From IMG/VR virus record IMGVR_UViG_3300028886_000075: a stretch of DNA of 64,000 bases, one strand, 5' to 3'. The notes beneath the pieces were generated by a model. It was not told the DNA's origin. It saw nothing but the letters and a program-made list of their open reading frames with translations, and did not search any database. Each line of letters opens with the position of its first letter. Within the stretch, counting starts at the first letter, position 1. This stretch comes from a virus. Its lineage: Duplodnaviria > Heunggongvirae > Uroviricota > Caudoviricetes. The position numbers were made by a program, and so were the translations under genes. This document shows, one piece after another, positions 124 through 45,498 of the stretch.

Positions 124-1520
124 TGGATCATTTAATAGATAAATATTTAAAGAAGCCTGAAGTAGTTAAAGAACTATTTCAAAAGGAAGTATCAATAAGT
201 CTTAAAGTTGATGGGGCAGCATTTCAGATATCTTATGATAAAGAAAATGATAGCATAACATATCATAAGAGAGGTGGTAGTTCTAAATCTTTAGGTCCTA
301 TTATTGATGAATATACTCAGTTAATGAGAAAGAACATTAATGATGCTATTGATTATTTTGAATCTAAAAAGGAAGTAGTTAAGAAGTATAAATTCTATGC
401 TATTGAAATGTTTAATGATTCATATATTCTTTTAACTGTTATTGATAATGATGACAATATTATTGATGATAGAAACAAGTTAATAGAAATATCAAAATCA
501 TTAGGTATAGATTGTGTTCCTATTTTATTTGAAGGTAAGTTAAATTCAGAACAAATAGAATCATTATTATCTATGATGACATTAGAACCTGAGACTTCTA
601 ATGATGTTTATAAAAAATATTTAACAGATATTTTTGGTAAAGGTGAATATGAAAAGTTCTTAAATGGAGATGAAGTTGAAGGTATAGTATTAACTTGGTC
701 TATTAATGATAAAATACAACAATTTAAAATAATAAATCCTGCATTTAAAACTCGTCATGATAAGGAGATTAAAAATGGTAATGAAGAGTTTAAAAAAGAA
801 ATGGAAGATCTTAGAAAATTATTTGAATTTTTTTATGAATCATTAAATAAATATGGATCTTATCAGTCAGATAATTGGATTGAAAATTTAAATAAGAATT
901 TTATAAATATAGTTAATAAAGAAGATTCAAAATTTAAAGAATTTAATAAGAAAATAAAACCATATTTTAAAGATTTCTTTACATTACAAATTAATAAAGT
1001 TTCAAAAGATATTAAAGAACTTATTGATAATAATGGAGATCAAATGAAATTTTATTATGAAAAATTCTTATTATTATTTAATAAATCAAAGAAACGTAAT
1101 TTTACAATATCTAAAGAATTTCAAAATAAAGTAAATAATTTAATTGAAAAACTTCAATCAAAAAATGAATCACTTAAAACATATACTATACGTAAAATGA
1201 AAAATTTAAATGTTTATATAAAAGAAGAAAAGAAAACAACTGGTTCGGGTTGTGTTAATATGGTTCAAACAATTTTAGATGAATTATCACAAAATCATCC
1301 AAATTGTAAATATGATAAAGAAAAAAATGCATGGGTTGGTAAAGATGCTGATTTATGGAAAGGTGCTGGTCAGTTCTTATATGATTATTTACATGAATTA
1401 GACCAAAAGGATTTTAAAGAAATTATAAATCATTTTGGGTGGGAACAATATATTCCTGACGTAAATGATATACATCCTGCAGAAATATCAATGTGTGTTG
1501 CTTTAGCATTACATTCATAA
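123..1520 (+). CDS. RNA ligase, T4 Rnl1 (RnlA)-like
   Basis: The nucleotidyltransferase motif I region [27 protein letters not shown] parallels T4 Rnl1 [48 protein letters not shown] parallels the Rnl1 EGYV...KIK motifs IV/V. The T4 sequence is recalled from memory. Confidence 0.65.
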   Translation: [465 protein letters not shown]

Positions 1521-1540
1521 ATAAAATATAGATTAATAAT

Positions 1541-2281
1541 ATGAAAGACTTAAAACAGTTTATATTAGAATATAAAGCTCGTATAAAAAAATCTTTTGAT
1601 TATAAAACTATTAAACAAACAATAGAATCTTGTAAACCATCATTTTTTGGTAAATCAGTAAGTATGGCAATATTATGGACTCCACAAATTTATTTTAATT
1701 ATGATAAAGGGTGGTCTACAGGTAAACCTAATAAAGAACTTTTTCATGGAAAAGATTATAAAGAAATAACATTAGGTGCATCAACAGTATTATTTATTGA
1801 ATGGTTTGCTAAGAAACATATTTTTAAAGATAATGAATTTACTGGAAGATTAGGTTGTTTTTATCCTAATATTATGAATGATGATGATAAACATAATTGG
1901 GAAGAAGTTGAAAAATATTTAGAATCTAAATATAATGCAAAAACTCAAGATAATTGTGATTATATAAAATTTGATTCTTATGAAGAATTAGAAGAAATTC
2001 TTAAAGATTTAGAAAAAATCATTAATGAATATAATACTAATTATGATAAAAATAATGCAGCATATATTTATTTTGATAAATCTGAAGCTGAACAAAATTC
2101 TTCTGATAAGAAAAAACAATATCAAATATTATCTTGTGAAGAAGAAATTATTAAACTTAATAAACAATTAGAAGACACTAAGAAAGCCGCATCTGCATCA
2201 GATACAGACCTTTCAGTAGTAATTGACATGATTAATGATAAAATTAAATTCTTTAAAAATAAAAAAGATAATATAAAATAA
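1541..2281 (+). CDS. hypothetical protein with capsid-targeting-sequence (CTS)-like N-terminus (MKDLKQFILE)
   Basis: Long ORF with a conserved N-terminal motif shared with about 24 ORFs in the window. Tightly packed. Confidence 0.65.
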   Translation: MKDLKQFILEYKARIKKSFDYKTIKQTIESCKPSFFGKSVSMAILWTPQIYFNYDKGWSTGKPNKELFHGKDYKEITLGASTVLFIEWFAKKHIFKDNEFTGRLGCFYPNIMNDDDKHNWEEVEKYLESKYNAKTQDNCDYIKFDSYEELEEILKDLEKIINEYNTNYDKNNAAYIYFDKSEAEQNSSDKKKQYQILSCEEEIIKLNKQLEDTKKAASASDTDLSVVIDMINDKIKFFKNKKDNIK

Positions 2282-2282
2282 T

Positions 2283-2597
2283 ATGAAAGATATCAAACTT
2301 TATTTGGAAAGTAAATATATAAATGAATCAACTCAAGGAGAAGATTTACATGAAGAAATAGGTCTAGCTCTTAAAGAGTTTGGTAATATCAAAAACGGTT
2401 TTAAGATGGTTAAAATCGATGATATTAAAGATGCGATGTATAAAACAGGATTTGACTTTGTTGAAGAAGATTCATCAGATGAAAAATTAGTATTTGTTGG
2501 TGAATATGTTGATACACAATATGAAGTTACTCTTTATGCAGAAGATCATGTATCAGGGAAATTCAAAATTAAAAATTTCAATGAAATAGAAGTATGA
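2283..2597 (+). CDS. hypothetical protein, CTS-like N-terminus (MKDIKLYLES)
   Basis: ORF whose start lies 2 nt after the upstream stop. Carries the conserved motif. Confidence 0.65.
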   Translation: MKDIKLYLESKYINESTQGEDLHEEIGLALKEFGNIKNGFKMVKIDDIKDAMYKTGFDFVEEDSSDEKLVFVGEYVDTQYEVTLYAEDHVSGKFKIKNFNEIEV

Positions 2598-2905
2598 AAG
2601 ATTTAAATAATTTTATAAATGAATCTATAAGTGATGTTAAGTATGCTATTCGATGGTATTATTATGCAGACGAAAAAATGTCAATATCATATCAGTCATC
2701 ATTAAATAGAGCACAATCATTTGTTCAAAAAATGCAAAAACAAGGTATGAAAATATATGAAATATATGAAATACCTTCAAATAATATAAAGCAATTTAAA
2801 ACTCTTATTAATAAGAAAGGTGATAATGAAAATCAGTTTAAAGAACTTTATAATAATTATTGGAACAAATCAGATATAGAAAAATTTTTAAGTGAAAAAC
2901 AATGA
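2594..2905 (+). CDS. hypothetical protein, CTS-like N-terminus (MKDLNNFINES)
   Basis: ATGA start/stop overlap with the upstream gene. Carries the conserved motif. Confidence 0.65.
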   Translation: MKDLNNFINESISDVKYAIRWYYYADEKMSISYQSSLNRAQSFVQKMQKQGMKIYEIYEIPSNNIKQFKTLINKKGDNENQFKELYNNYWNKSDIEKFLSEKQ

Positions 2906-3195
2906 AAGATATTAATCAATTCATTAATGAAGAAATAAATAAGTATTTCACACAACAAGAAATAGGTGAAATAATGAAAGATATGTGGGCTAAAGATGGT
3001 CAATTTTATAAATTTGTTAAAGATAAAGTTGATTCATTAAAAGCTACTGACATAAATGATTATTTAGATCAATGTTTAGATGATGATAGATGTACAGCAG
3101 AATTTGCAGCATATATAGAAATGGTTATTGGTCGTCATAATTTTAGTTTAGAGCAAGTTCAGAAATTTATAAATACAGAAGATTTAAAAGGATGA
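2902..3195 (+). CDS. hypothetical protein, CTS-like N-terminus (MKDINQFINEE)
   Basis: ATGA overlap with the upstream gene. Carries the conserved motif. Confidence 0.65.
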   Translation: MKDINQFINEEINKYFTQQEIGEIMKDMWAKDGQFYKFVKDKVDSLKATDINDYLDQCLDDDRCTAEFAAYIEMVIGRHNFSLEQVQKFINTEDLKG

Positions 3196-3217
3196 AGAAT
3201 TTATAATTTGTAAACAA

Positions 3218-3769
3218 ATGAAGAACCTAAAAGACATTATATCTGAAAAGTTAATTATAAATAAGAATATAAAGATTAATAAATATAATTATTTTCCAAA
3301 GAATAGAAGAGAACTTACGGAAATTGTTACTAATAAATATAAAGATCTTAAAGATAAAAATGAAGTATTAGATTTAAATGATATTGATGTTTCAAAAATA
3401 AAAGATCTTTCTTATTTATTTGAACTTATATATCCTAAAAAAGTAGATATGAATAACTGGAATGTAAGTAATGTAACAGATATTCATGGGTTATTTTGGA
3501 ATAATCAAATTATTGAAGAAGTTCATATAGAAGACTGGGATGTACGTAATGTAGAAACAGCTTATGGTGCTTTTTATTTTTGTAAAAACATTAAAGAATT
3601 AAATTTAGATAATTGGGAATTCAACAAATGTACAGAATTTGATTTAATGTTCAAAGGATGTAAAGAGTTAGATACTCATTTTACAGATAACTGGAAAATA
3701 ACACAAACAATAACATGTGATAACATGTTTGAAGGTTGTAAATATGCTCCAAAATGGTATAAATTATGA
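3218..3769 (+). CDS. BspA-family (DUF285-type) repeat protein, CTS-like N-terminus MKNLKDIISEKLIINKN
   Basis: Repeats of WNVSNVTDIHGLF / WDVRNVETAYGAF type. First of three tandem paralogs. Confidence 0.7.
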   Translation: MKNLKDIISEKLIINKNIKINKYNYFPKNRRELTEIVTNKYKDLKDKNEVLDLNDIDVSKIKDLSYLFELIYPKKVDMNNWNVSNVTDIHGLFWNNQIIEEVHIEDWDVRNVETAYGAFYFCKNIKELNLDNWEFNKCTEFDLMFKGCKELDTHFTDNWKITQTITCDNMFEGCKYAPKWYKL

Positions 3770-4233
3770 AAAATCTAAAAGACATTATATTAGAAAAATT
3801 AATAATCAATAAAAACACTAAAATTGATAATTATCATTATCATCCTAAAGATAAAGGTGAACTAATGAAATTATTAGATAAACTTATTGAAGAAAGAGGA
3901 TGGGAAGGTAACTTTAATGATATTGATACATCTAATATAACAGATATGTCTATGTTATTTACATTCTCACGTCCAAAGTTTAATGGTGATATATCGGAAT
4001 GGGATGTAAGTAACGTTACCAATATGCGTTTTATGTTCTGTGATACAAAATTCAGTGGCGATATATCAAATTGGGATGTAAGCAATGTTAAATATATGAC
4101 TGAAATGTTTTATGGGTGTAATGATTTTAATTGTAATTTAAATAAATGGGATGTAAGTAAAGTTGAAGATACAAGAGATATGTTTTATGGATGCCCATTA
4201 GAAAAAAATCCACCAAAATGGTATAAAATATAA
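3766..4233 (+). CDS. BspA-family (DUF285-type) repeat protein, CTS-like N-terminus
   Basis: Four or more repeats of GDISxWDVSNVxxMxxMF. ATGA overlap with the upstream paralog. Confidence 0.7.
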   Translation: MKNLKDIILEKLIINKNTKIDNYHYHPKDKGELMKLLDKLIEERGWEGNFNDIDTSNITDMSMLFTFSRPKFNGDISEWDVSNVTNMRFMFCDTKFSGDISNWDVSNVKYMTEMFYGCNDFNCNLNKWDVSKVEDTRDMFYGCPLEKNPPKWYKI

Positions 4234-4245
4234 ATATATTAAACT

Positions 4246-4917
4246 ATGAAAAATCTAAAAGACATCATTTCAGAAAAACTTATAATTAATAAGAATAGTA
4301 AAGTTAAAAAAAATGTTAAGACAACAAATGAACTTAAACAACTTATTAATAAACTTATTGAAGAACGTGGTATAAATGCAGATCTTAATGATATAGACAC
4401 TTCTGAAATAACAGATATGTCATATTTATTTTCTGATTCTAAATTTAATGGAGATATATCTGAATGGAATGTAAGTAATGTAAAAAATATGACATGTATG
4501 TTTAATAATTCTAAATTTAATGGAGATATATCTGAATGGGATGTTAGTAATGTTACTAGAATGAACGGCATGTTTATGCGTAGTAATTTTAATAATAATA
4601 TATCTTATTGGGATGTTAGTAATGTTAAACATATGAGTTTTATGTTTGCTAAAAATAAAAAATTTAATGGAGATATATCTGAATGGGATGTAAGTAATGT
4701 TGAAGACATGGAATGTATGTTTGAATATTCAATTTTTAATGGAGATATATCTAAATGGGATGTAAGTAATGTTACTAATATGAAAGAAATGTTTTATCAT
4801 TCAAAATTTAATGATATAAATGGTGATATCTCTAAATGGAATATTCGTAATGGTGTAAATATGGAACGTATGTTTAAAGGATCACCTATAGAAAATAATC
4901 AACCAAATTTTTATTAA
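4246..4917 (+). CDS. BspA-family (DUF285-type) repeat protein, CTS-like N-terminus
   Basis: Seven repeats of FNGDISEWDVSNVxxMxxMF. Confidence 0.75.
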   Translation: MKNLKDIISEKLIINKNSKVKKNVKTTNELKQLINKLIEERGINADLNDIDTSEITDMSYLFSDSKFNGDISEWNVSNVKNMTCMFNNSKFNGDISEWDVSNVTRMNGMFMRSNFNNNISYWDVSNVKHMSFMFAKNKKFNGDISEWDVSNVEDMECMFEYSIFNGDISKWDVSNVTNMKEMFYHSKFNDINGDISKWNIRNGVNMERMFKGSPIENNQPNFY

Positions 4918-4920
4918 ATA

Positions 4921-4975
4921 TTAAACTATGAAAAACTTATAATTTATAAACAAATGAAGAACCTAAAAGACATCA
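4921..4975. repeat. duplicated 5-prime module (vestigial start 'ttaaactatgaaaaa' plus 37 nt matching 3201-3237 with 1 mismatch)
   Basis: Direct comparison: 3201-3237 'ttataatttgtaaacaaatgaagaacctaaaagacat' against 4938-4974 with one substitution. 4921-4935 matches the 4240-4254 start context. Confidence 0.7.
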
Positions 4976-5457
4976 TATTAGAAAAACTTTCACCATTTAA
5001 TGTTTGGATAATGGTAGGTCTTCCTGGTGCGGGTAAATCAACATATATTAAAGAAAAATTACCTAAATCAATTAATATAGTTAGTCAAGACTATATAAGA
5101 CAAGAATTGGGTATAATAAAAGATGATACTCATAAGGCAATAGGAACCACTGAACAGGAAAAAGAAGTTACAAAAATAAATGATGAAAGAGTTGAAAAAC
5201 TTATTAAAGATAGAAAAGATTTTGTAATTGATAATACAAATGTTAAAGTAGGACGTGTTGAAAATTATTATAATAGGTTAAAGAAAATTGGTGCTAATGT
5301 TAAAATTGTTGTTGTTGATACACCTATAGAAACTTGTATTAAACGTAGAAATGATTGTATACCTGAAAACGTTATAAAACAAATGAATATTGGCATACAA
5401 AATGTTAAACAACAATTCAAAGATAATAAAGATTTAGAAATTGTTCATAATACTTAA
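4954..5457 (+). CDS. P-loop nucleotide/polynucleotide kinase-like protein (T4 Pnk kinase-domain-like), CTS-like N-terminus
   Basis: Walker A GLPGAGKST. VIDNTNVK parallels T4 Pnk ISDTNLN. 167 aa, so there is no phosphatase domain. Shares its first 12 aa with the DUF285 paralogs. Confidence 0.55.
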   Translation: MKNLKDIILEKLSPFNVWIMVGLPGAGKSTYIKEKLPKSINIVSQDYIRQELGIIKDDTHKAIGTTEQEKEVTKINDERVEKLIKDRKDFVIDNTNVKVGRVENYYNRLKKIGANVKIVVVDTPIETCIKRRNDCIPENVIKQMNIGIQNVKQQFKDNKDLEIVHNT

Positions 5458-5475
5458 ATAATTTCATATATTATT

Positions 5476-5516
5476 AAAAAATGCTTAGAAATATTTAAAT
5501 ATTTCTAAGCATTTAC
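5476..5516. terminator. perfect 30-nt palindrome tgcttagaaatattt/aaatatttctaagca flanked by A and T runs (bidirectional terminator-like)
   Basis: Read directly from the sequence. Confidence 0.6.
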
Positions 5517-5565
5517 TATATTATATCTGTAAATAAAATAATAAACAAACAATAAAAATAAAATT

Positions 5566-20489: not shown

Positions 20490-22193
20490 ATGACAAATAA
20501 GCGTTGCTTAATTTATGAAACATTAGGCAAAGTTTCAGATCTTCAGATTGTTGAGTCTGAAAATAGCAACGAAATGCGTCTTCATGGTATATTTGGTGTA
20601 TGTGGAATAAAAAACCAAAATAATCGTGTTTATGATAAAGATAATTACGGTCAAATGGTTGAATCTTTACAAAAAGAAATTCAAGAACATGGATGTCCAG
20701 GTGAATTAGAACACCCTAATTCTATGAATATTAATTTGCAAAATGTTTCACATAAGATAGAAGATATTCAAATGAATGAAGATGGTACAATTACTGGTAC
20801 AATACTTTTGCTTAATACTCCAAGTGGTAAGATTGCAAAAGCTATTGTTGAAGGTGGTTTACCACTTTATATTTCTTCTCGTGGTGCCGGTACAATTACT
20901 AATGAAGGTCGTGTTACGTTATCTACTATTAAGACATATGATCTAGTTGGTACTCCTGGATTTAGTCAAGCTAAACTTACTTTAAAGCCAAATCAAACTC
21001 TTGAATGTCTCAATGAAGGTCTAGATAATGATACAAATATCTGGGCAGTTATAGATGAAGGTAAAGATGATGATGATTTACTTGATAGTAATAATGACAA
21101 AGATAAGGATTCTAATGATAATGAATCTAAGGATAAATCTAAAGAAGAATCTAAGGATAAATCTAAAGAAGAACCAAAAGATAATGAAAATGACGATAAC
21201 AAAAATAATGGCAATGATAATATTGATATGAAAGAATTGAAAGAAGCTATAGATAAACTTACAGAAAAAGTTGAATCTTTAGAAGCTGAACTTCATGTAG
21301 CTCAAGAATCTTTGAATGAGACAAAAGAATCAATTAAGCCAATTAATTATGAAGCAATCGAGAAGTGGTGTACTGAGGAATTTGCTCCATCTTTAAAAAA
21401 TGAATTTAATGAAGATGTAGAAGAAAAAATTCAAAACAGTATCAATGAATCAATTGAATCATTAATGGATAATGTACAAAATTGGATAGTTGAAGAATTT
21501 GCTCCAGAAGTACAAAATTGGGTAGTTGAAGAATTTGCTCCAGAAGTACAAAATTGGGTAGTTGAAGAATTCTCACCTGAAGTACAAAATTGGATAACAG
21601 AAGAATTTGCTCCAGAAGTACAAAATTGGGTAGTTGAAGAATTTGCTCCAGAAGTACAAAATTGGGTAGTTGAAGAATTCTCACCTGAAGTACAAAATTG
21701 GATAACAGAAGAATTTGCTCCAGTTGTTGAAGGTTGGATAACTGAAGAATTTGCTCCAGAACAATCACAAACTATTGAAGCTAAAGTAAATGAAAATGTA
21801 TCTGCATTTATGGAATCTCAAAAGGCAGGTCGTTTAGATGAAATTGATAGCTTATTAGAATCTATTTCTCAAGATAGTAATTCAGATGTAAATAAGATTA
21901 TTAAAGAACAAGCTATTGAAAATAAATATAAAGGAGTTTTTGTTGTAGAAAATATGCCTTCTCAATATACACCTCAATGGGAATTATTAGATGAAGCACG
22001 TCAACAAGAAATAATCCGTACATCAAAAATGTATGATTTCTCTAAAGAAGGTGTTTTAGAATCATTCTGGGCTAACCAAGATTTATCAAAAACTACTGTA
22101 ACTAATAAAGTAAATGAATCAGTTAATCCAATTAATTCATACCAAATGTCTATAGTAGAAAAGATGAAAGCTCTTCGTAATCATGCAATTTAA
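20490..22193 (+). CDS. gp21: prohead protease (T4 gp21-like, peptidase U9 family) fused to an acidic repeat-rich C-terminal (scaffold-like) region
   Basis: The N-terminus aligns by eye with T4 gp21: PGELEHP against LGELNHP, YISSRGAGT against GVSSRGLGS, and DLVGTPGFSQA against DAVWGPSAP. The C-terminus has a KD/E low-complexity stretch and 8 copies of QNWVVEEFAPEV. Confidence 0.8.
   Translation: MTNKRCLIYETLGKVSDLQIVESENSNEMRLHGIFGVCGIKNQNNRVYDKDNYGQMVESLQKEIQEHGCPGELEHPNSMNINLQNVSHKIEDIQMNEDGTITGTILLLNTPSGKIAKAIVEGGLPLYISSRGAGTITNEGRVTLSTIKTYDLVGTPGFSQAKLTLKPNQTLECLNEGLDNDTNIWAVIDEGKDDDDLLDSNNDKDKDSNDNESKDKSKEESKDKSKEEPKDNENDDNKNNGNDNIDMKELKEAIDKLTEKVESLEAELHVAQESLNETKESIKPINYEAIEKWCTEEFAPSLKNEFNEDVEEKIQNSINESIESLMDNVQNWIVEEFAPEVQNWVVEEFAPEVQNWVVEEFSPEVQNWITEEFAPEVQNWVVEEFAPEVQNWVVEEFSPEVQNWITEEFAPVVEGWITEEFAPEQSQTIEAKVNENVSAFMESQKAGRLDEIDSLLESISQDSNSDVNKIIKEQAIENKYKGVFVVENMPSQYTPQWELLDEARQQEIIRTSKMYDFSKEGVLESFWANQDLSKTTVTNKVNESVNPINSYQMSIVEKMKALRNHAI
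21474..21762 (+). repeat. in-frame 36-bp tandem repeat x8 (encodes VQNW[IV][VT]EEF[AS]PE)
   Basis: Direct repeats of gtacaaaattgggtagttgaagaatttgctccagaa with minor variants. Confidence 0.85.
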
Positions 22194-22300: not shown

Positions 22301-24058
22301 ATGTTTAATGAACAAAATGGCGCACAGACATGGGAGAAAATGTTGAAAGAAAACTTCAACGTAACAGACCAGGAAAAACTTAACTGGGTTTCTCAATATG
22401 CTGCTATTCACGAAATTCACGAATCTCAACTTGGAATCAATGGTGGTAACGTAGTAACAAGTACAGCTTATCCAGGTGTTGGTCCTATCTATACAACTCC
22501 AATGAATACTCTTGGTATTGGTAACCCAACTGCTCCAAGTCAATTAGATCCAATGAGCACTGCTCCTTACAATCAAGCTAACCCAACAGGTTCATTCTGG
22601 GGACAAACTCCAGGTTCTGGTGATATTCCAGTATCTACACTTCCAATGGCTCTTAACGTTGCATTGTTAACTATTGGTCTTGAACTTGTACCTGTTATTC
22701 CTGCTAAGGGTCCTTGGGCTATGTTAACATACATGGACTTCCCATACGCTGGTGGTAAACTTGGTCGTGTAAATGAAACATCTTTCGATGGTAAAGGTGA
22801 AAAGAATGAAAACAAACCAATCTACATCAAGATTAAAGGTTTAACACTTCCACAAATCGCTGAAATACGTGAAGCTATGGAAGCTGCTCAAAATCCTGTT
22901 AAAGCTGACGATGCTGTAGTAGTTGCAGGTTTCAAAGGTACATTCATTATGCTTGGTCGTATGGATGCTTGTCCTCTTGTTAAGGTTGTAGAATGCACAG
23001 ATGCAAATACTTCAATAGTTGAAGAATTTAATGCTGCTACATCTGTTGTAATTGGTTCTAAGACAATTACTCTTGCTGCAGGTCAAAAGGTTACTCCTGA
23101 TTTCGTACAAACATCTGTTGATTTAGTTGACGGTTTCGCTAACTTCGCTACAGGTAAGAAAGAATCTATGACACGTGCTCAAAATGAAACTGGTACAGGT
23201 AATGTAATTGGTCTTCGTTTATTCAGTAAGTGGGTTCAAATGGGTTCATACGAAGTTACTGGTACTGTAACTCGTCAACAATTACAAGATCTTCCACTTT
23301 ATGGTGTTGATGCTGTAGGTAAAGTTATGGAAGCTCTTCAAAACGAAATTACACAACACATCAACCAACGTATTCTTGAAAGAGTATTTGCTCTTGGTGT
23401 TACAAATGCTGTACAACAAAAGGCTCGTCAAGGTGTTGATTTGAACTTGTGGATGGGTAAGACAGGTGCTTCTGTTGACATGGCAGATCATTATGCTGGT
23501 GTTCCTCACTTCACAGATATCTATGGTACAGACCATAAACCATTATGGAAAGGTATTTCTAACTCTGAAGTTAACACTTCTGCAGAAAATCTTTCAACAC
23601 GTCAACGTCGTATCATGAGCCGTATCTTAGCTGCTGCTAACTTAATCCAATTGGTAGGTCGTCGTGGTCGTCCAACATGGATCGTTACTAACGGTAAGAT
23701 TGCTTCTGCTCTTCAAGATGTATCTGGTTATGTAGTTGCTCCAATGCTTAATACAATGTCTCAAGCTAATACTCAAAACTTATATCACGCTGGTACAGTT
23801 GCTGGTCTTCAAGTTTATGTAGATCCATATATGGACTGGAATGATACACGTATCTGTATTGGTCGTAAGGGTACAGGTAATGAACCTGGTGTAATATTCA
23901 TGCCATACATTCTTGCTGATACTGTATCTATCACTGCTGAAGGTACAATGGCTCCTAAGATGTTGGTTAACAGCCGTTATGGTATCGCTGAAGCTGGTTT
24001 CTTCCCAGAACTTGCATACTTCACATTGGTTGTTGATTCAGAATTTGATTTGATCTAA
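22301..24058 (+). CDS. gp23: major capsid protein (T4 gp23-like)
   Basis: Several collinear matches to T4 gp23: DLPLYGVDAVGKVMEALQNEITQHINQRILE against LRAVHGMDADAELSGILATEIMLEINREVVD, GRRGRPTWIVTNGKIASALQDV against GRGEGNFIIASRNVVNVLASV, and the C-terminus MPYILADT...RYGIAEAGFFPE against APYVALTP...RYGIGINPFAE. Host-optimal codons. A terminator follows the gene. Confidence 0.88.
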   Translation: MFNEQNGAQTWEKMLKENFNVTDQEKLNWVSQYAAIHEIHESQLGINGGNVVTSTAYPGVGPIYTTPMNTLGIGNPTAPSQLDPMSTAPYNQANPTGSFWGQTPGSGDIPVSTLPMALNVALLTIGLELVPVIPAKGPWAMLTYMDFPYAGGKLGRVNETSFDGKGEKNENKPIYIKIKGLTLPQIAEIREAMEAAQNPVKADDAVVVAGFKGTFIMLGRMDACPLVKVVECTDANTSIVEEFNAATSVVIGSKTITLAAGQKVTPDFVQTSVDLVDGFANFATGKKESMTRAQNETGTGNVIGLRLFSKWVQMGSYEVTGTVTRQQLQDLPLYGVDAVGKVMEALQNEITQHINQRILERVFALGVTNAVQQKARQGVDLNLWMGKTGASVDMADHYAGVPHFTDIYGTDHKPLWKGISNSEVNTSAENLSTRQRRIMSRILAAANLIQLVGRRGRPTWIVTNGKIASALQDVSGYVVAPMLNTMSQANTQNLYHAGTVAGLQVYVDPYMDWNDTRICIGRKGTGNEPGVIFMPYILADTVSITAEGTMAPKMLVNSRYGIAEAGFFPELAYFTLVVDSEFDLI

Positions 24059-24311: not shown

Positions 24312-24325
24312 AAAGATATACAAAT

Positions 24326-28191: not shown

Positions 28192-29826
28192 ATGAAACCT
28201 AATTTCTTATCATTTATAGAATCTCGTAATAAATTTATTAATGAATCATTTGATAATTCAAAAATTGATAAAGTATTTGAATTAATCAATAAAGTACTTA
28301 AAAAATATATAGATGGTTTAGTACCTTTAGTAGGATATGTAAAAATTAAACAAGGCAGTGATGAATTATATGCTAAACAATATATGGTTGTACCTAAGTC
28401 ATCACCACAAAACAGTACTGTATTTTGTATTAATCTAAAACAATCAAAAAATTCAACTGATTTTTATTCTATTGATTTCTTTAAAGATACTAATGTATTA
28501 TTCAGTGAAAAATCAAAAGCAGTTTTATCAATTTATACTTTAGGTAATTCTATATCATATTATTTACCTATTATTTGGACTATTGTTAATTCTAAAGATT
28601 ATAACTTATCTGAAAAAGAAGCTTTAAATATTGCTAGAAGTAAATTTACTGGAGTTAAAGAATCAAAATTCCAAATTGGGTCATTAAGATATATAATTTA
28701 TGAAAATCTTTCTGACAAAATTATTGAGGAAACATTTAATATTTATACTAATGAATCTATTTATAATTCTGAACAAGCAATAAATGAAATGAGTATAAAG
28801 GATTATAAAAAGAAAAAAGTTGATGAATTAATTGATGCACGTAATCATAAAAATGATTCTCCAGAAGCAAAAGATAAATGGAAACAAATAGTTTCTGAAC
28901 TTAAAGAAATTGATACTGCTATTAAAGGTGGTGCAACTACAATTGAAGATTTAAAACTTTCAATTAAACACAACATTCAAATAGTAAATGAATTAGATAA
29001 AGAAACACAAGAAGCTGAAGATAAGTTTAATGCAGAACGTGAAGATCCAGATTTAGTGTTTAAGAAAATGGATAAATACACAAAAATGGTTATAAAAGGT
29101 ATTAATCCTTCAGTAATTATTTGTGGTGCTCCTGGTGTTGGTAAAACATATCGTATTAAACAACAACTTAAAGCTAATGGATATAATGAAGGTCATAATC
29201 TTTTAACTATTAAAGGTAAATGTACACCACGTATTCTTTATCTTTCATTAATGCAATATAAAGAAAAAGGTAAGATTATATTAATTGATGATGCAGATAG
29301 CTTAGTTGGTCCTCATGCACCTGAAGATTGTATTAATATTTTGAAAGCTGCTTTGGATTCTACATCTGATGATGAAGGAAGAATTGTATCTTATGGAGTT
29401 TCAGGTCCACTTAAAGATGATGAAGGTACTCCAGTTGAAAAAAGATTCTTTTATAATGGTAGTATTATTGTTATAACAAATTATCAAGCATCTGCACTTG
29501 ATTCTGCTCTTAAAGGAAGATCATTTATTCAGGATATTAATTTCTCAAAAGACGAACTTCTTGAAATTATCAAAAAACTTATGCCTGCAATTGATCCTGA
29601 ACATCTTTCAGCAAAATCAAAAATTAAAGCATATGATTATTTAACAGAATTATCTAATACAAATCAAGATATGGAAATATCTATTCGTACTTTCGGCATA
29701 TGTGCAAAGATTTTTGAAACTGCTGCAGGTGATCCTGATTTTACTGATGATGATGCAAAATCAATGATTAAAGAACAAATGAAACTACAAGCTTCAAAAC
29801 GACAAGGTCGAGCTATTAAATATTAA
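28192..29826 (+). CDS. P-loop AAA-type ATPase with a long (about 300 aa) N-terminal extension
   Basis: Walker A VIICGAPGVGKTYRI and Walker B KIILIDDADSL in the C-terminal half. Confidence 0.55.
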   Translation: MKPNFLSFIESRNKFINESFDNSKIDKVFELINKVLKKYIDGLVPLVGYVKIKQGSDELYAKQYMVVPKSSPQNSTVFCINLKQSKNSTDFYSIDFFKDTNVLFSEKSKAVLSIYTLGNSISYYLPIIWTIVNSKDYNLSEKEALNIARSKFTGVKESKFQIGSLRYIIYENLSDKIIEETFNIYTNESIYNSEQAINEMSIKDYKKKKVDELIDARNHKNDSPEAKDKWKQIVSELKEIDTAIKGGATTIEDLKLSIKHNIQIVNELDKETQEAEDKFNAEREDPDLVFKKMDKYTKMVIKGINPSVIICGAPGVGKTYRIKQQLKANGYNEGHNLLTIKGKCTPRILYLSLMQYKEKGKIILIDDADSLVGPHAPEDCINILKAALDSTSDDEGRIVSYGVSGPLKDDEGTPVEKRFFYNGSIIVITNYQASALDSALKGRSFIQDINFSKDELLEIIKKLMPAIDPEHLSAKSKIKAYDYLTELSNTNQDMEISIRTFGICAKIFETAAGDPDFTDDDAKSMIKEQMKLQASKRQGRAIKY

Positions 29827-39102: not shown

Positions 39103-39333
39103 ATGAAAAATATCGGAGATAAAATTAACGAAGGACTAAATGTTTCAAAATCTTTTGTCTTAAATATGAAAGAACTTGATTACGATAAATTAATTGATTT
39201 TATTAAAGATATGCAATCTAAAAACGAAGACTTTATTGAATTACAAGTTGATTCATCTCGTAAATGGATTGGATATTCATTTTCAAAAGGAAAAACTGAT
39301 AATATTAGATACAATAAAACTGAATTAAATTAA
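39103..39333 (+). CDS. hypothetical protein, CTS-like N-terminus (MKNIGDKINEG)
   Basis: ORF with a weaker copy of the conserved N-terminal motif. Confidence 0.55.
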   Translation: MKNIGDKINEGLNVSKSFVLNMKELDYDKLIDFIKDMQSKNEDFIELQVDSSRKWIGYSFSKGKTDNIRYNKTELN

Positions 39334-39334: not shown

Positions 39335-39529
39335 ATGAAACAAATAAAAGAATTTATTAATGAATCAAACGAATGGAATCCATCATTAGATTCTCATAAA
39401 GTTGCATATAATAACTTTGTTAAATGGTATGACAAATGTTTAAAACATTTAAATAAAGAAGAAATATTAGATTTACTTAATGGAGCAATTAAAGAAATTG
39501 AAGATGATTCATTAGATATCATAAAATAA
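39335..39529 (+). CDS. hypothetical protein, CTS-like N-terminus (MKQIKEFINES)
   Basis: Conserved N-terminal motif. Confidence 0.6.
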   Translation: MKQIKEFINESNEWNPSLDSHKVAYNNFVKWYDKCLKHLNKEEILDLLNGAIKEIEDDSLDIIK

Positions 39530-39547: not shown

Positions 39548-40069
39548 ATGAAATCAATAACTCAATATATATATGAAGCTGTAGAAAATTATAGATTGAA
39601 TTCTGTTGAAGTTACATATAATGTTCAACCAGAAGAATTAATATTACAAGCACCTGAAACATTCCAAGAGTCAGATATCCAACAATACATAGACGATATG
39701 TGGCTCAATCAACTTCCATCTTCTCAAGACTATTCTGAAAAATTCTTTGGAAAAAATAATGATAATATATCTGATGCATATTTTGAATATGATTCATTTG
39801 AACATCTTTCAGTAGAACCTAAAGATTATATTGAATGGAATTCAAAATATGATGTTAAGAAAAGTGGAGATGACATTACATTAGAATACTTTAAAATAAC
39901 AAATCTTAAATATCATATTAATTTTGATAGATTTGATATGGTTGATGTTGATGATGATAATGTAGAAGAAAAACTTAAAGATATATTTAGAACCACAGAA
40001 TCTAATAAAGAAAATGAATATCCTATAGAAATTCAATTTGATGAAGATTCACTTGAATATAGAAAATAA
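39548..40069 (+). CDS. hypothetical acidic protein, CTS-like N-terminus (MKSITQYIYEA)
   Basis: Conserved N-terminal motif. Confidence 0.6.
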   Translation: MKSITQYIYEAVENYRLNSVEVTYNVQPEELILQAPETFQESDIQQYIDDMWLNQLPSSQDYSEKFFGKNNDNISDAYFEYDSFEHLSVEPKDYIEWNSKYDVKKSGDDITLEYFKITNLKYHINFDRFDMVDVDDDNVEEKLKDIFRTTESNKENEYPIEIQFDEDSLEYRK

Positions 40070-40359: not shown

Positions 40360-40677
40360 ATGAAAGATTTAATTAGTATAATAACAGAATCAAGAAAAGA
40401 AATATGTCCTGAAGTTCAAAATGAATTCGAAAATGATTATGCATATCAATCTTATACAACAACAAAATCAAAATTTGATTATGGATTTTTAACATTTGAT
40501 GCTAATCAAGAATTTTATTCTGTTGTTGGAGTTAATGAAAACAGTGAATTCATTGATTCTTTATGTAATGATTTTAATTTAGATGCAGAAGAATTATTAG
40601 ATTTAAAAGTTGGTGAATCAATAAGTGATAAAAGCCATGGAGATAATTATAACTATTCAATTTTAAGAATTTGGTAA
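40360..40677 (+). CDS. hypothetical protein, CTS-like N-terminus (MKDLISIITES)
   Basis: Conserved N-terminal motif. Confidence 0.6.
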   Translation: MKDLISIITESRKEICPEVQNEFENDYAYQSYTTTKSKFDYGFLTFDANQEFYSVVGVNENSEFIDSLCNDFNLDAEELLDLKVGESISDKSHGDNYNYSILRIW

Positions 40678-40701: not shown

Positions 40702-41196
40702 ATGAAAAATTTAACTGAAAAACTTAATATACAAAATATTAATGAATCAGTCGCAAAAGATATTAAGATTCCACGTAAAGGAAGCACTGTATATCTTTTA
40801 AAAGATGGTGATTCTAAAGCAATACCTGTAAAAGTCAATAATGTCACAAAGGTTAAGAACTCTTGGTATGGACGTTCAGGTGGATATGATGTAATTATTG
40901 AATTAGAAGATAATGAATATAAATTTGATGGCTGGAAAACATCACATTATGCAGACCCAAAATTAGATGAACCTATTCAAGTAGATACAAAATCAGTACA
41001 TGGAATTGGCACTTTTTACGTTGGTACATCTAAAGAAGTAATTTCAGAATTCATAAAGAATGGTGCGACAAAGAAACTTAAAATGTTACTTAAAGAAATA
41101 GAAGATGCAGAAAATCAACTTGCAGAATTAAATCGTCAAAAGAATGAACTTCAACAAAAGATTGACACTGAAATTACAGAATCTTTAAATAAATAA
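40702..41196 (+). CDS. hypothetical protein, CTS-like N-terminus, C-terminal coiled coil
   Basis: MKNLTEKLNIQNINES. C-terminus LKEIEDAENQLAELNRQKNELQQKI. Confidence 0.6.
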   Translation: MKNLTEKLNIQNINESVAKDIKIPRKGSTVYLLKDGDSKAIPVKVNNVTKVKNSWYGRSGGYDVIIELEDNEYKFDGWKTSHYADPKLDEPIQVDTKSVHGIGTFYVGTSKEVISEFIKNGATKKLKMLLKEIEDAENQLAELNRQKNELQQKIDTEITESLNK

Positions 41197-41205: not shown

Positions 41206-41487
41206 ATGAAAGACATTAAAGAAAAACTATTAAGCCAGATTAATGAAGACAGATTTGCATATTCATGGCAAAATGCTTTCATAAATGCTATCATATCATT
41301 AAATGATGTTGATGGTGAAATTCCTTGTCGTGAAATAGTCAATAAATGGTTTAATGATGAACAAGCTCTTCATGAATTATATACATTCTTATATCGTATA
41401 GATTGTAAACCTGAAAAGAAGGATGTAAATTCTATAGTTGAAGCAATTATAAATAAATCATCAAAATTGAAAACTTACAAGATATAA
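41206..41487 (+). CDS. hypothetical protein, CTS-like N-terminus (MKDIKEKLLSQINED)
   Basis: Conserved N-terminal motif. Confidence 0.6.
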   Translation: MKDIKEKLLSQINEDRFAYSWQNAFINAIISLNDVDGEIPCREIVNKWFNDEQALHELYTFLYRIDCKPEKKDVNSIVEAIINKSSKLKTYKI

Positions 41488-41508: not shown

Positions 41509-41772
41509 ATGAAAAATTTAAAAGATAAATTAGTTTTGGAAAATGAAGAATCTGCAATATTTACATTAACTGCTAAAGATTTAGATAAGATACTTTTTTC
41601 ATTATCATTTACTGCTGGGTGGGCTAGCGAAGTTAATTCATATGAAATGAAAGAATATAAGAAACTTTGGGATGAATTAAATAAAGGAGCAAAGAAATCA
41701 TTTGATGCAGATATGTATGTAGATGACTGGGATGATTATGAACTGGCTCATACAGGAAGCTTTAAACATTAA
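41509..41772 (+). CDS. hypothetical protein, CTS-like N-terminus (MKNLKDKLVLENEES)
   Basis: Conserved N-terminal motif. Confidence 0.6.
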   Translation: MKNLKDKLVLENEESAIFTLTAKDLDKILFSLSFTAGWASEVNSYEMKEYKKLWDELNKGAKKSFDADMYVDDWDDYELAHTGSFKH

Positions 41773-41803: not shown

Positions 41804-42154
41804 ATGAAAGACATTAAAGAATATATTAATGAATCTAAAAATTTCAAATTAGAATCTGATGAACGTCAAGCTTTAGCAGACTTAATTGGTATGTTATGCG
41901 GTAATATTGGAAATGATGAAGATATAAACAAATTAAAATCTGTAATAGATCAATTAAGTAAAGAAGAAATAAAACAATTAGATAATCTTCATGATTGTTT
42001 AGATGATGAAGAAACATATAAGAAAATAAATCGTAATATTATTATTGATGATATTCCATTGATTAAAAAAATATATAAATTAATGGATGATAATAATTTA
42101 TTAGGAGAACAATGGGATCTTATTGATGCTTTAGAGAAAATAAATGAATATTAA
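41804..42154 (+). CDS. hypothetical protein, CTS-like N-terminus (MKDIKEYINES)
   Basis: Conserved N-terminal motif. Confidence 0.6.
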   Translation: MKDIKEYINESKNFKLESDERQALADLIGMLCGNIGNDEDINKLKSVIDQLSKEEIKQLDNLHDCLDDEETYKKINRNIIIDDIPLIKKIYKLMDDNNLLGEQWDLIDALEKINEY

Positions 42155-42156: not shown

Positions 42157-42558
42157 ATGAAACAAATAACATCATATTTGTTAGAAGGTCTTCGTATCAA
42201 TAAAGATATTAAAGTTAATTATGAAAGAGATGATATATACAACATTATAATTGCTGCTTATCTTTCTATATATCGTCTTAAATGTTGGACTGAAACATCT
42301 ACATTTAAAAAGAAAATTTTATATATTAAATATGAAGATATATTAAATATTCTTAATGATAATTTTGAATATACATTTACAAAAGACGATATAAAAAGAA
42401 CATCAGGATATATATGGAAAATTGTTAGAAAATATTTAATACCTATTCAGAATATGATTAATGGATATAATGTAATTATTAGAATTGAAGATGAAAAAAT
42501 AACAATTAATTATAAAGAAATTAATGAAAAGTATAAAGACATTTTAAATAAAAAATAA
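42157..42558 (+). CDS. hypothetical protein, CTS-like N-terminus (MKQITSYLLEG)
   Basis: Conserved N-terminal motif. Confidence 0.6.
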   Translation: MKQITSYLLEGLRINKDIKVNYERDDIYNIIIAAYLSIYRLKCWTETSTFKKKILYIKYEDILNILNDNFEYTFTKDDIKRTSGYIWKIVRKYLIPIQNMINGYNVIIRIEDEKITINYKEINEKYKDILNKK

Positions 42559-43496
42559 TGCAATCTTTGAATAACTATATAATAGAAACAAATATAGAAA
42601 ATATTTTTTTGGATAAATTATGTAATCATATATCATTATCATTATATATTAAATATGGTTACGGAATTTATCCATATGTTTCTTTATATGAATCATTTGG
42701 TAATTTTAAGAATACTCATAAAGTATTATATCATATTATTGAAGTATTAAAAAATGAATTCAAGTCTCAAGAAATAGATTGTACTAATGATAATGTATTT
42801 TTCAAGAAAATAAAAATAGATATAGTTAATGAAGATTATATAAGTGCAAGTTATTTAAATATTAATAATGATAAAATAGATATTGAAATATTATGTTTAG
42901 ATAAAGAAATGTTTATTGATAATATTGAAGAATATACTGAATTGATATTACATGAACTTTTACATGGTTATGAAGATTTTAACCGTAAAACAACTAATAA
43001 ACCAGATATATTTCAATTATGGAATGTTGATTATGAAAAATCTTATTTAAATATAAATAATTTTGATAAGATTAAAAGATATATAAGTAGATGTAAATAT
43101 TTTTTAAATTCACAAGAACGTAATGCGTATTTTTCATCTTTAGAATTATCTATTAAGAAAATAATTAAAGATTATCATATTACTGCAGATAATTTAGATT
43201 ATGAAAAATTCAAACATGGAATTAAACGCGAAACATTATGGGAAATTTATTTTGATTTAGGAACATTTATTCTAGGATTAAATAATATAAATAATGAATA
43301 TAAAAAGGAAATAGAAAAACAATATAATTCATTATATAATACAAACAAATCATTTAACGAAATCAAAAAAGAATTAAATAATAAATGGAAAAAATTTGAT
43401 CATAAATTCAATCAGTTAATTCCTAAAATATTATGTAAAAATATACAAATAAAAGAATTTAAAAATTCTTCTTTTAGTTTGAAAAAATTATTATAA
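42558..43496 (+). CDS. hypothetical protein with an HExxH motif (LHELLHGYEDF), CTS-like N-terminus (MQSLNNYIIET)
   Basis: An HELLH pentapeptide is followed by GY. A paralogous HELNHGY is present in the 63029 ORF. Confidence 0.55.
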   Translation: MQSLNNYIIETNIENIFLDKLCNHISLSLYIKYGYGIYPYVSLYESFGNFKNTHKVLYHIIEVLKNEFKSQEIDCTNDNVFFKKIKIDIVNEDYISASYLNINNDKIDIEILCLDKEMFIDNIEEYTELILHELLHGYEDFNRKTTNKPDIFQLWNVDYEKSYLNINNFDKIKRYISRCKYFLNSQERNAYFSSLELSIKKIIKDYHITADNLDYEKFKHGIKRETLWEIYFDLGTFILGLNNINNEYKKEIEKQYNSLYNTNKSFNEIKKELNNKWKKFDHKFNQLIPKILCKNIQIKEFKNSSFSLKKLL

Positions 43497-43508: not shown

Positions 43509-44396
43509 ATGAAGTCATTGAACAACTATATATTTGAATCTAAAGAAGTTTCTACAAAATCTAATAAAGAACGTCGTAAGGAATTGGAAAAATGGTTGAA
43601 ACATAAAAAGTATGACGATTATGTTGATACTTTAAATAAGATGCTTGAAGATCCTAAATCAGCTGCATTATTGGAAGATGGTTTTGGGGGAGAACTTGGA
43701 GATACAAAATTAACATTTTCAGTTAAAGAAATTCCAGTATCTCAGTTAATGCCTACACAAAAAGATATAGATTTAGATAAGTCATTAAAACATGCATTAA
43801 CAGATAAAGAATCTTTAATTAAGACTTTTGCAAATCCAATTGAAATCAATAAGCCTATTGTTACTTTTAGAGAGAATTATGTTATAGACGGTCATCATAC
43901 ATGGCTACAAGCTATAGCATTAAATCCAAAAGGAAAAATATTATCATTTAATTATGACGGTGATATTTCTCCAATTCAGATGCTTAAGGCTGTACAAGGA
44001 ACTATAGCAGCAGTTAAAGCTGATAAGAATAATAATAATGGTAAACTTCCATCAAATAATGTAAAAGGTCCTAATTTCTTTGATGAATCATTTGATGAAA
44101 AGAAAATTAGGAAATATATAGAAGATAATCTTAATGAAGACTTAATAGATCAATATATAGAAAAAATAGAAGAATGCTATGATTACGATTCTACTGTTGA
44201 TTATATAGTAGAACGTCTATTAGATATTAAGTCAAATAATTATCCATTTGATACAGCACCAGATAGAAAGAATATGCCACAAGTATTTAAAGGTGGCACA
44301 GATAAAGATGATAAAAGTTCTGCATTACCTGATAAAGAAGGTTCTGCGATGAATAAACTTAAAAATGATACCTTTTATAAAAAAGCTACCATTTAA
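43509..44396 (+). CDS. ParB/sulfiredoxin-fold nuclease-like domain protein, CTS-like N-terminus (MKSLNNYIFES)
   Basis: VSQLMPTQKDID ... PIVTFRENYVIDGHHTWLQAIALN resembles the ParB N-terminal domain (L-PTQ ... DGHHR). Confidence 0.45.
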   Translation: MKSLNNYIFESKEVSTKSNKERRKELEKWLKHKKYDDYVDTLNKMLEDPKSAALLEDGFGGELGDTKLTFSVKEIPVSQLMPTQKDIDLDKSLKHALTDKESLIKTFANPIEINKPIVTFRENYVIDGHHTWLQAIALNPKGKILSFNYDGDISPIQMLKAVQGTIAAVKADKNNNNGKLPSNNVKGPNFFDESFDEKKIRKYIEDNLNEDLIDQYIEKIEECYDYDSTVDYIVERLLDIKSNNYPFDTAPDRKNMPQVFKGGTDKDDKSSALPDKEGSAMNKLKNDTFYKKATI

Positions 44397-44436: not shown

Positions 44437-44892
44437 ATGAAAGATATAGTTAATTATATTACAGAAGCATCTTCATCAAAATTTGATTATTGGAAAGATG
44501 TAATTAAATTTCCTGGATATGAACTTAAAGTATCAAAGAAATACTTAGACAAGAAAATAAATACAAGATATTATCAGGAAGAATTCTTATATCAATATTT
44601 TGGTTGGATTAACCAATGGATTGATAAGAATGTTAAAAAGATTATTAGTATAGTAACTAAAGAAAATAAAGAGTTTCCAAAAGAAATTTCAATATCTTTA
44701 CCAAGTGAATTACATGGTGTTTTACAATTTGACTGGGATTGTGGTTGGGCAGATAATATACCAACAGGATCTCTTCGTGATGTTGAATTAAAAGTAGATA
44801 ATGTTTCACCAGGATCAATGAGTCATAGTTCATTCTATCAGGCACAAGAAGATTTACAAAATTTTAAATTAAAAGATATAATTAAATTTTAG
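44437..44892 (+). CDS. hypothetical protein, CTS-like N-terminus (MKDIVNYITEA)
   Basis: Conserved N-terminal motif. Ends with TAG, a rare stop in this window. Confidence 0.6.
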   Translation: MKDIVNYITEASSSKFDYWKDVIKFPGYELKVSKKYLDKKINTRYYQEEFLYQYFGWINQWIDKNVKKIISIVTKENKEFPKEISISLPSELHGVLQFDWDCGWADNIPTGSLRDVELKVDNVSPGSMSHSSFYQAQEDLQNFKLKDIIKF

Positions 44893-44943: not shown

Positions 44944-45498
44944 ATGAAAGACATTAAAACATTTATTTCAGAAGCAAAGAAACAAACACCTAAAAAAGAA
45001 TACCCTATGAAAAAGAAAGAAACTTATGGAGATTTAGGTGAAAAATGGTTTGATAAGTGTAAAGACTTTGCTACGGCAGGAAGTACACAATGGACTAAAT
45101 ACGGTATCAATGATTTTAAAGGATTCTTAGAAGATATGGATAAAGAATTCAAACCAGGTGGAGAAGGCCGTTGGAAAAAGGATTGTGAAGTTCGTTGGGA
45201 AATGTGTCAAGCACTTAAAGATAAAGATTTAGATAAATTTGTAAAAATTGCTAAAGAAAACTATGTTGAAAAATTTACTTTTGGTGCACATCCTAATGCT
45301 GATTACACTTATGGATCATATTTTTTAGATACTTATATGCTTCTTAGAACTTACGAATATATTCTTGATGGCAATATGGTAATTCGTAATGGTATTTTAA
45401 ATGCTATCTGGAGAATTGATGATACTATGGATAATTGGTATGATAAATTTATTGATACAGTTCATAAATTAGAAAAACAAGTTCCTGGACATAAATAA
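44944..45498 (+). CDS. hypothetical protein, CTS-like N-terminus (MKDIKTFISEA)
   Basis: Conserved N-terminal motif. Confidence 0.6.
   Translation: MKDIKTFISEAKKQTPKKEYPMKKKETYGDLGEKWFDKCKDFATAGSTQWTKYGINDFKGFLEDMDKEFKPGGEGRWKKDCEVRWEMCQALKDKDLDKFVKIAKENYVEKFTFGAHPNADYTYGSYFLDTYMLLRTYEYILDGNMVIRNGILNAIWRIDDTMDNWYDKFIDTVHKLEKQVPGHK

Follow-up and report, generated by a model that had tools for sequence, protein, structure and literature searches.

A short T4-like N-terminal peptide shared by some two dozen mostly unrelated proteins in a 64-kb window of an uncultivated huge phage

The 64,000-nucleotide stretch of Caudoviricetes DNA analyzed here (IMG/VR record IMGVR_UViG_3300028886_000075; hereafter the window) contains, at positions 1541-5457, a block of eight consecutive genes whose products begin with closely similar peptides. 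The original prediction for this block was that the shared N-terminus (hereafter the tag) resembles the capsid targeting sequence (CTS) of the phage T4 internal head proteins and marks a large set of packaged, injected proteins. The eight open reading frames (ORFs) do start with the peptides that it had listed, MKDLKQFILE, MKDIKLYLES, MKDLNNFINE, MKDINQFINE, and MKNLKDIISE and MKNLKDIILE twice each. An (I/L/F)-x-E site at residues 8-10, claimed for every member, is present in seven of them but not in the ORF at 2283 (genes are named here by their start coordinates), which is shorter by one residue and has its Glu at position 9.

The tag extends well beyond this block. Across the window, 19 of the 78 ORFs that are 60 aa or longer fit the pattern ^M[KQ]x4[FYILVK][ILV]xE, against an expectation of 0.09 from the internal frequency of the pattern, or of 0.34 given Lys or Gln at position 2. 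On a position matrix these 19 starts score 19-28 bits, and the next real gene starts in the window score less than 7 bits. Variant tags on five further ORFs (2283, 28192, 40702, 41206, and 41509) bring the total to 24, in agreement with the predicted number of about 24 and equal to roughly one third of the genes in the window. Four of the variants (2283, 40702, 41206, and 41509) score 4.9-6.5 bits on the matrix; the weakest member, 28192, scores below -3.2 bits, lies outside the 40 best matrix scores, and is counted solely because [FV][IL]NE-S is kept at residues 15-19. Every tag begins at the first start codon of its ORF. The 19 canonical tags have the 10-residue form, and those at 40702, 41206, and 28192, like some in orthologues, are extended to 15-19 residues. 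Position 4 is Leu or Ile in 19/19 canonical tags, position 7 is Tyr, Phe, Ile, or Leu in 18/19, position 8 is Ile or Leu and position 10 is Glu in 19/19, and the residue after this Glu is Ser, Lys, Ala, or Gly in 16/19.

We compared the mature parts (first 12 residues removed) all-against-all by BLASTP. Only three proteins with DUF285 repeats were mutually related, and the 24 mature parts therefore represent 22 families. The expectation that the downstream sequences are unrelated thus holds for 21 mature parts, which are mutually dissimilar, but not for the DUF285 trio, which are paralogues with a common 17-residue N-terminus. The structural genes of the window (capsid, sheath, tube, and protease) carry no tag. 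Apart from 28192 and 62168, which stand isolated, the tagged genes are packed tightly into two same-strand arrays (1197-5457 and 39103-45840) with intergenic gaps of -4 to 51 nt.

The first array (+ strand) opens with an in-frame internal tag unit of 107 aa, MKNLNVYIKEEKK... (MKNLNVYIKEE), at 1197..1520 (17.1 bits). This unit is the C-terminal part of ORF 123-1520, which matches RNA_ligase PF09414 in Pfam, and is a ninth tag unit directly upstream of the eight-gene block. The relative L025 has a 110-aa homologue of it as a tagged gene of its own (9138-9470), and the unit in the window reflects either gene fusion by stop-codon loss or a nested start inside 123-1520. The block itself starts with a 246-aa protein that matches no known family (1541..2281, MKDLKQFILE), followed by a 104-aa protein with the variant tag MKDIKLYLES(KYINES) (2283..2597; homologues of ~81% identity in L018, L052, and L021), and by proteins of 103 aa (2594..2905, MKDLNNFINES) and 97 aa (2902..3195, MKDINQFINEE), both identified by pattern and matrix. 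As predicted, the remainder comprises three DUF285 (BspA-like repeat) proteins and a P-loop kinase. The former have 183 aa (3218..3769, MKNLKDIISEK, Pfam DUF285 E 5e-18), 155 aa (3766..4233, MKNLKDIILEK, E 1e-31), and 223 aa (4246..4917, MKNLKDIISEK, E 3.5e-65). The kinase (4954..5457, 167 aa, tag MKNLKDIILEKL) is polynucleotide-kinase-like and matches Pfam AAA_33 (E 1e-19) and the PHROG 505 polynucleotide kinase (E 7e-24). In its AlphaFold2 model the tag is a short separate helix (residues 4-12) preceding strand 1 of a confidently predicted kinase fold. The kinase lies one gene away from the RNA-ligase-family gene; T4 tRNA repair employs a kinase and RNA ligase pair (T4 annotation), to which the pair in the window may be parallel.

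The second array, also on the + strand, starts with genes for proteins of 76 aa (39103..39333, MKNIGDKINEG) and 64 aa (39335..39529, MKQIKEFINES), both found by pattern and matrix, and an acidic protein of 173 aa and isoelectric point (pI) 4.2 (39548..40069, MKSITQYIYEA, found by pattern), which has homologues of 77-79% identity in L116, L005, and L078. A 105-aa protein (40360..40677, MKDLISIITES, pattern and matrix) precedes three with tag variants: 164 aa with the extended tag MKNLTEKLNIQNINE-S, laid out like the 19-aa propeptide of T4 IPI (40702..41196), 93 aa with the extended tag MKDIKEKLLSQINE-D (41206..41487), and 87 aa with the variant tag MKNLKDKLVLENEES (41509..41772). The top-scoring tag, MKDIKEYINES, belongs to a 116-aa protein (41804..42154, pattern and matrix), whose homologue in L052 adjoins homologues of 2283 and 2594. 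Next come proteins of 133 aa (42157..42558, MKQITSYLLEG) and 312 aa (42558..43496, MQSLNNYIIET), both found by pattern, and a highly conserved protein of 295 aa (43509..44396, MKSLNNYIFES). The array ends with proteins of 151 aa (44437..44892, MKDIVNYITEA, pattern and matrix), 184 aa (44944..45498, MKDIKTFISEA, pattern), and 103 aa (45529..45840, MKHIKNYILEK, pattern); a homologue of the last, with 85% identity, lies in L005, a piece of a 435-kb contig.

The 295-aa protein 43509 has 788 homologues, the best 120 of which share at least 79% identity with it; certain orthologues have extended tags, e.g. MKSINNYIDNINLSSFLFE-S. It gave one distant match only among 50,697 GenBank phage records and no meaningful match among PDB sequences. 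Sub-threshold ParBc_2 matches in 25 of 26 family members (best E 0.008) suggest that it possibly has a ParB-like nuclease fold. Motifs resembling those of the ParB/Srx fold (..PTQSEIDLD.. and ..VIDGHHTW..) are seen in its sequence. Its AlphaFold2 model is poor (mean predicted local distance difference test score, pLDDT, 45) because the alignment is shallow. Of the two isolated genes (both +), 28192..29826 encodes an AAA ATPase of 544 aa (Pfam AAA) with the possible extended tag MKPNFLSFIESRNKFINE-S, and its homologue in L044 starts MKNSYLDFIKRRQNVLNE-S with the site at residues 15-19 preserved. The other, 62168..63001, immediately follows a topoisomerase II gene and encodes a 277-aa protein (MKNLGDLIKES) with a phosphoribosyltransferase-like C-terminus (Pfam Pribosyltran, 28.8 bits).

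The shared start is conserved as a peptide and not merely as a nucleotide motif. Codons vary within the residue classes: position 4 (L/I) is encoded by TTA, CTA, TTG, ATT, ATA, or ATC, position 7 (Y/F/I) by TAT, TTT, TTC, ATT, or ATC, and position 8 (I) by ATA or ATT, and the sequence upstream of tagged genes showed no conservation. We also aligned 38 kinase orthologues fetched by their kinase domain, a set that is unbiased as to the tag. All 38 keep M1, [IL]4, [FYI]7, [IL]8, and E10, and 37 keep K2 and K11, whereas positions 3, 5, 6, and 9 are variable (entropy 1.4-2.4 bits). Because the motif positions are kept and the interspersed ones have diverged in orthologues down to 60% identity, the peptide is under purifying selection. 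Distant homologues of the kinase are tagless and begin straight at the P-loop strand, e.g. MDNEMVIMVGLPGAGKST. In a 20-kb stretch of a 474-kb relative, 10 of 15 first genes but 0 of 23 next genes were tagged; no tags were found in 42 kb examined of the equally AT-rich LR756500.1, or in 25 kb examined of PTm1. The varied codons, the kinase orthologues, and these tagless controls together indicate that the motif is a selected, portable peptide rather than an effect of composition or translation initiation.

We then compared the tag with the T4 CTS, MKTYQEFIAE (PMC8442874). The start of IPIII, which the original prediction had given in this form, was confirmed in that source and by direct reading of the T4 genome. 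Amber-suppressor mutagenesis of the IPIII CTS assigned targeting mainly to residues 4 and 7 and processing to residues 8 and 10, and Asp at position 10 blocked cleavage (PMC9026906). Besides M1 and K2, the positions conserved in the window are 4, 7, 8, and 10, the very determinants of IPIII; the predicted likeness is borne out in register: positions 4, 7, and 8 are hydrophobic and position 10 is Glu. One difference is that position 4 is aliphatic in the window and aromatic in T4. T4 propeptides have 10-19 residues (PMC9026906), and that of IPI (MKTFKEFTSTTTPVSTITE|A, 19 aa; MKTFKEF...ITE) shares a two-part layout with the extended tags of the clade, e.g. MKSINNYIDNINLSSFLFE|S. When 1,580 T4 ATG starts were scored with a matrix built from the window only, gp61.1 came first, ipII and ipIII took ranks 3 and 4, and rank 6 went to gp24, from which gp21 cuts off an N-terminal propeptide (PMC9026906). 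Gene 61.1 of T4 (NC_000866, 18966-19130, minus strand) encodes 54 aa starting MKTFKEFIKED, which outscores ipII and ipIII; gp61.1 may be an unrecognized CTS-bearing protein.

The likeness to the T4 and T-even internal proteins IPI, IPII, IPIII, and Alt goes further than an MK propeptide of 10-19 residues with hydrophobic residues at 4 and 7, Ile or Leu at 8, and a Glu cleavage position. In both cases the tag sits on proteins that are otherwise unrelated, the phage has an S77 protease and a gp23-type capsid, and the loci are variable and share the tag alone. The window contains a myovirus structural module with capsid, prohead protease, tail sheath, and tail tube genes. As the original prediction had stated, a gp21-type protease is encoded at 20490..22193 (+): it matches Pfam Peptidase_S77 (39.6 bits) and PHROG 207 (E 8e-37), and has 27% identity to T4 gp21 in BLASTP (E 4e-9). 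Its kinship with gp21 rests on Pfam, PHROGs, and pairwise BLASTP because a search of PDB sequences with this protein gave no match. His75 and Ser129 of the protease align with gp21 His85 and Ser140, which we take to be the catalytic residues in both proteins. Its own N-terminus is MTNKRCLIYE-T, so that LIYE-10 stands where T4 gp21 has LIE-9. The gene adjoins that of the gp23-family major capsid protein (22301..24058, +; Pfam Gp23 E 3e-31); the tail sheath (24290-27385) and tail tube (27469-28080), both assigned by Pfam/PHROG, follow.

Unlike gp21, the protease bears a fused scaffold-like domain. Its C-terminal ~400 residues are acidic and form a long coiled-coil, repeat-bearing domain, in which Tandem Repeats Finder detected eight tandem 36-nt (12-aa) repeats NW[VI][VT]EEF[AS]PEVQ (21474..21761, +; period 36, 8.0 copies, 84% matches), each with a hydrophobic-x-E site inside. 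This domain may be a gp22-like scaffold and the likeliest surface for docking of the tag, and its 12-aa repeat region is a candidate for scaffold or tag docking. A second short repeat in the protease, at 21123-21184, encodes an acidic SKDKSKEE stretch. We considered whether the repeats are a trait specific to tagged phages and rejected this, as PTm1 (with W-containing repeats) and LR756500.1 have comparable ones and are tagless in the examined regions.

The tag is not special to the source phage; it is the number and arrangement of the tagged genes that are unusual. A degenerate DNA pattern for the tag matches at least 120 IMG/VR stretches, and among the matches listed, tags at ORF starts cluster in many contigs of 21-48% GC, those of higher GC being marine T4-like phages (cyanophages, pelagiphage HTVC008M, and Methylophilales phages). 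Among the annotated genes of cyanophage S-SM1, gene 190 (MKKFSAFLNE, a cytidyltransferase by annotation) alone has a clear tag, and mass spectrometry of purified virions detected its product at 25 peptide counts (PMC3037559 Table S8). Its homologue in cyanophage S-SZBM1, gene 140 (MRFRQFIIE|A), encodes the one enzyme in the virion proteome determined by mass spectrometry (PMC9146016). These data lend modest support to a tie between the tag and virions outside the T-even phages. Both genes lie in a conserved cluster of a ligase-like gene, the tagged cytidylyltransferase-like gene, and hypothetical genes (S-SM1 6446-13353, S-SZBM1 3995-7677), several products of which are virion-detected; a homologue of the ligase-like gene is tagged in IMG/VR contig L016 (MKKFRQYITES) and untagged in S-SM1 and S-SZBM1 as annotated.

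The source of the window is an AT-rich, uncultivated huge phage that is distant from T4 and whose capsid matches Gp23 at the Pfam level only. GC content in the window is 19-37%, its first 25,000 nt had no near-identical DNA in the 50,697 GenBank phage records, and its proteins recur on metagenomic contigs of up to 290-474 kb. In tblastn the capsid protein has 36% identity to the huge phage LR756500.1 and 29-34% to PAU, PTm1, and Lak phages, so that by capsid the nearest annotated phages are LR756500.1 (462-kb, metagenomic), Sphingomonas phage PAU, Tenacibaculum phages pT24 and PTm1, and the Prevotella Lak megaphages. A Shine-Dalgarno core precedes only 1 of the 78 window genes, which together with these relatives suggests a host of the Bacteroidota type. 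No tRNAs and no recoding were found in the window. The sequence TATATAAC occurs at 5993, 11298, 13713, and 20459. It precedes genes 6015, 11326, 13752, and 20490 by 22-39 nt, and all of these but 6015 belong to the structural module. It might be an element of late promoters, but shows no enrichment in the window (12 copies versus 10.5 expected). No upstream k-mer distinguishes tagged from untagged window genes. Just past the second array lie two untagged BspA-type LRR_5 proteins (45858-47234, 458 aa; 48844-51147, 767 aa), followed, before 62168, by genes for a cytidylyltransferase-like nucleotidyltransferase (51892-52470), a macro-domain protein (54321-54836), a sigma-70 region 2 protein (57673-58758), and a type II topoisomerase subunit (60273-62165).

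The cargo is diverse: three DUF285 repeat proteins, the kinase, the AAA ATPase, the phosphoribosyltransferase-like protein, the conserved 295-residue protein, and many small acidic proteins that have no known relatives. The mature proteins have sizes of 6-60 kDa and a median pI of 5.6 (range 4.1-9.2). No tagged protein has a match to any known anti-defence family, and an anti-defence role is therefore hypothetical; the sole hints are the polynucleotide-kinase-like kinase near the RNA ligase gene and the weak ParB-like signal in 43509.

We consider it likely that the tag is a T4-type capsid-targeting propeptide cleaved by the prohead protease, and the phage probably packages and injects dozens of differing proteins. 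The tag would be an amphipathic helix of 10 residues (15-19 when extended) in two parts, a targeting part M-K-polar-[L/I]-x-x-[Y/F/I] and a processing part [I/L]-x-E, after which comes a small residue or Lys. During head assembly this helix would dock the tagged protein on the scaffolding core, probably on the long C-terminal domain of the S77 protease. Once the gp23-type shell has closed, the protease would cut after the Glu and set the mature protein free in the head, from which it would be ejected with the DNA at the next infection. Docking, cleavage, packaging, ejection, and the function of the cargo are what we infer from the gene sequences.

The motif, its register, the protease, and the repertoire agree with the predicted set of CTS-bearing packaged proteins. 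T4 internal proteins, however, are described as highly basic (PMC8442874), and the cargo of the window, among which are enzymes and repeat proteins, is acidic to neutral. Several points weigh against a T4-type function. The mature cargo does not fit the T-even class profile of small, highly basic, DNA-associated proteins, and the enzymes (kinase, AAA ATPase, phosphoribosyltransferase-like protein) have no known role inside virions. If the density of tagged genes holds over 300-470 kb, more than 100 tagged species would compete for head space. The arrays lack TATATAAC and are co-oriented with replication and nucleotide-metabolism genes, and for these two reasons their late expression is only conjectural. 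Ten residues are too few to tell homology from convergence; ipII and ipIII reach only 3 bits on the window matrix, compared with 19-28 for the window tags, and the top T4 start on that matrix belongs to the uncharacterized gp61.1, which is not a known virion protein. The cyanophage support comes from one protein family in two independent proteomes, and the tagged proteins of the clade itself are known as sequences only.

Some of these points would suit a peptide signal for another destination or fate, such as another assembly or compartment, a chaperone, or the timed removal of early proteins, with the likeness to T4 convergent or co-opted. The arrays look like an early region, with small, tightly packed, family-less ORFs co-oriented with replication genes, the cargo is acidic instead of basic, and the tagged proteins are very many for one head. 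We nevertheless regard such a signal as unlikely, since the conserved positions coincide at every residue with those that determine targeting and processing in T4, the window encodes a gp21-family protease with the same site in its own N-terminus, tag-bearing proteins are virion components in two cyanophages, and no alternative machinery was identified in the window.

The tag-coding 5' end also appears to act as a recombination handle. Kinases of 90% identity bear differing tags (MKNLKDIILEKL or MKNILSFILEKL), and the kinase 4954 and the unrelated DUF285 gene 3218 have ~60 nt in common at their starts (-28 to +33). Within this common block fall four-codon mini-ORFs ATGAARAAYTTATAA (MKNL, stop) at 3192-3206 and 4928-4942, 25 nt upstream of 3218 and 4954, which are possibly decayed remnants of tag starts or else short upstream ORFs. 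In L025 a nucleotidyltransferase ORF (5515-6273) ends ...MISLKEYITESIIKQ, a full tag followed by four residues and a stop, which resembles a scar left where a cargo cassette was deleted, and some orthologues have tandem tags. Cargo homologues in relatives occur in changed order with changed neighbours, and 8 of the 24 cargo proteins had no homologue in the ~125 loci examined. This mosaicism of cassettes matches the variable internal-protein loci of T-even phages, where the signal is the sole common sequence (PMC12373910).

The gene-conversion-like identity of the 3218 and 4954 starts, the ghost and tandem tags, and the mosaic arrays could likewise be read as signs that the shared N-terminus is a functionless relic of common descent or repeated recombination, a handle and nothing else. 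We judge this improbable: 22 unrelated families are tagged, orthologues at 60% identity keep the motif positions in all or nearly all cases while other positions have diverged, and recombination at tags is compatible with, and indeed expected under, a CTS function, as in the T-even loci. That the common start is instead a nucleotide-level or translation-initiation feature (A/T-rich, unstructured 5' coding sequence in a non-Shine-Dalgarno host) or a regulatory RNA site, with the peptide incidental, is highly improbable, for although the rarity of Shine-Dalgarno cores, the low GC of the genome (23-30%), AAA as the commonest second codon, and the leader that 3218 and 4954 share along with the tag would fit it, each conserved residue has several codons with its class fixed, structural genes that are presumably highly expressed and neighbouring small genes of like composition are untagged, the same peptide motif spans contigs of 21-48% GC, and extended tags retain [FIL]-x-E adjoining the mature protein.

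Other packaging systems resemble a T4-type tag in part. The giant myoviruses phiKZ, 201phi2-1, and SPN3US have a gp21-related protease (gp175/gp245) that cuts after Glu and many packaged, ejected proteins, whose propeptides are thought to direct incorporation. Their propeptides are mostly ~80-130 residues long (one of 20), cleavage occurs at S/A/G-x-E, only the paralogues gp53 and gp54 are reported to have an N-terminus in common, and a short portable tag across unrelated proteins is not described there. In phage P1 the N-terminal 30 residues of DarB, an injected anti-restriction protein, suffice to route a reporter into the capsid, but they are unrelated in sequence to the window tag, are not common to many proteins, depend on stepwise entry with other Dar proteins, and undergo no gp21-type cleavage. 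Encapsulin cargo-loading peptides are short and portable and bring unrelated cargo into an HK97-fold shell; they are usually C-terminal, shell-binding, and uncleaved, and belong to a cellular system without injection.

T4 has three internal proteins and the T-even phages at least 10 in total (PMC12373910); the 64 kb of the window hold about 24 tagged genes, which stand 8-15 in a row in the arrays, and the repertoire is thus as unusually large as the original prediction had supposed. We did not find the tag described for huge phages or cyanophages in the searchable literature. The mechanism itself is already known; what appears to be new is the scale, the cassette arrays, a cargo that is acidic and includes enzymes, the fusion of protease and scaffold-like domain, and the phage clade.

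A broader view, which we hold only tentatively, is that the head of this clade is a bulk protein-delivery device, in which the tag loads dozens of proteins (possibly more than 100 per 300-470 kb genome) and the DNA encoding it swaps cassettes between arrays and phages. Injected phage proteins act ahead of any phage gene expression and are therefore good candidates for counter-defence and host takeover; in recent work the three internal proteins of T4 proved to inhibit different GmrSD restriction enzymes (PMC12373910). Such proteins are hard to find because they have no common sequence. If the tag works as in T4, the window alone yields ~24 candidate injected proteins from 22 families, and the rule M-K-x-[LIFY]-x-x-[FYI]-[IL]-x-E near an S77 protease would make injected effectors directly readable in metagenomes throughout the T4 superfamily; used on related contigs and marine T4-like phages, it would give a large catalogue testable by virion proteomics. 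The tags would also be a natural set for loading foreign proteins into large capsids. The CTS mechanism would then reach far beyond the T-even phages and would explain the enzyme-like proteins in cyanophage virion proteomes.

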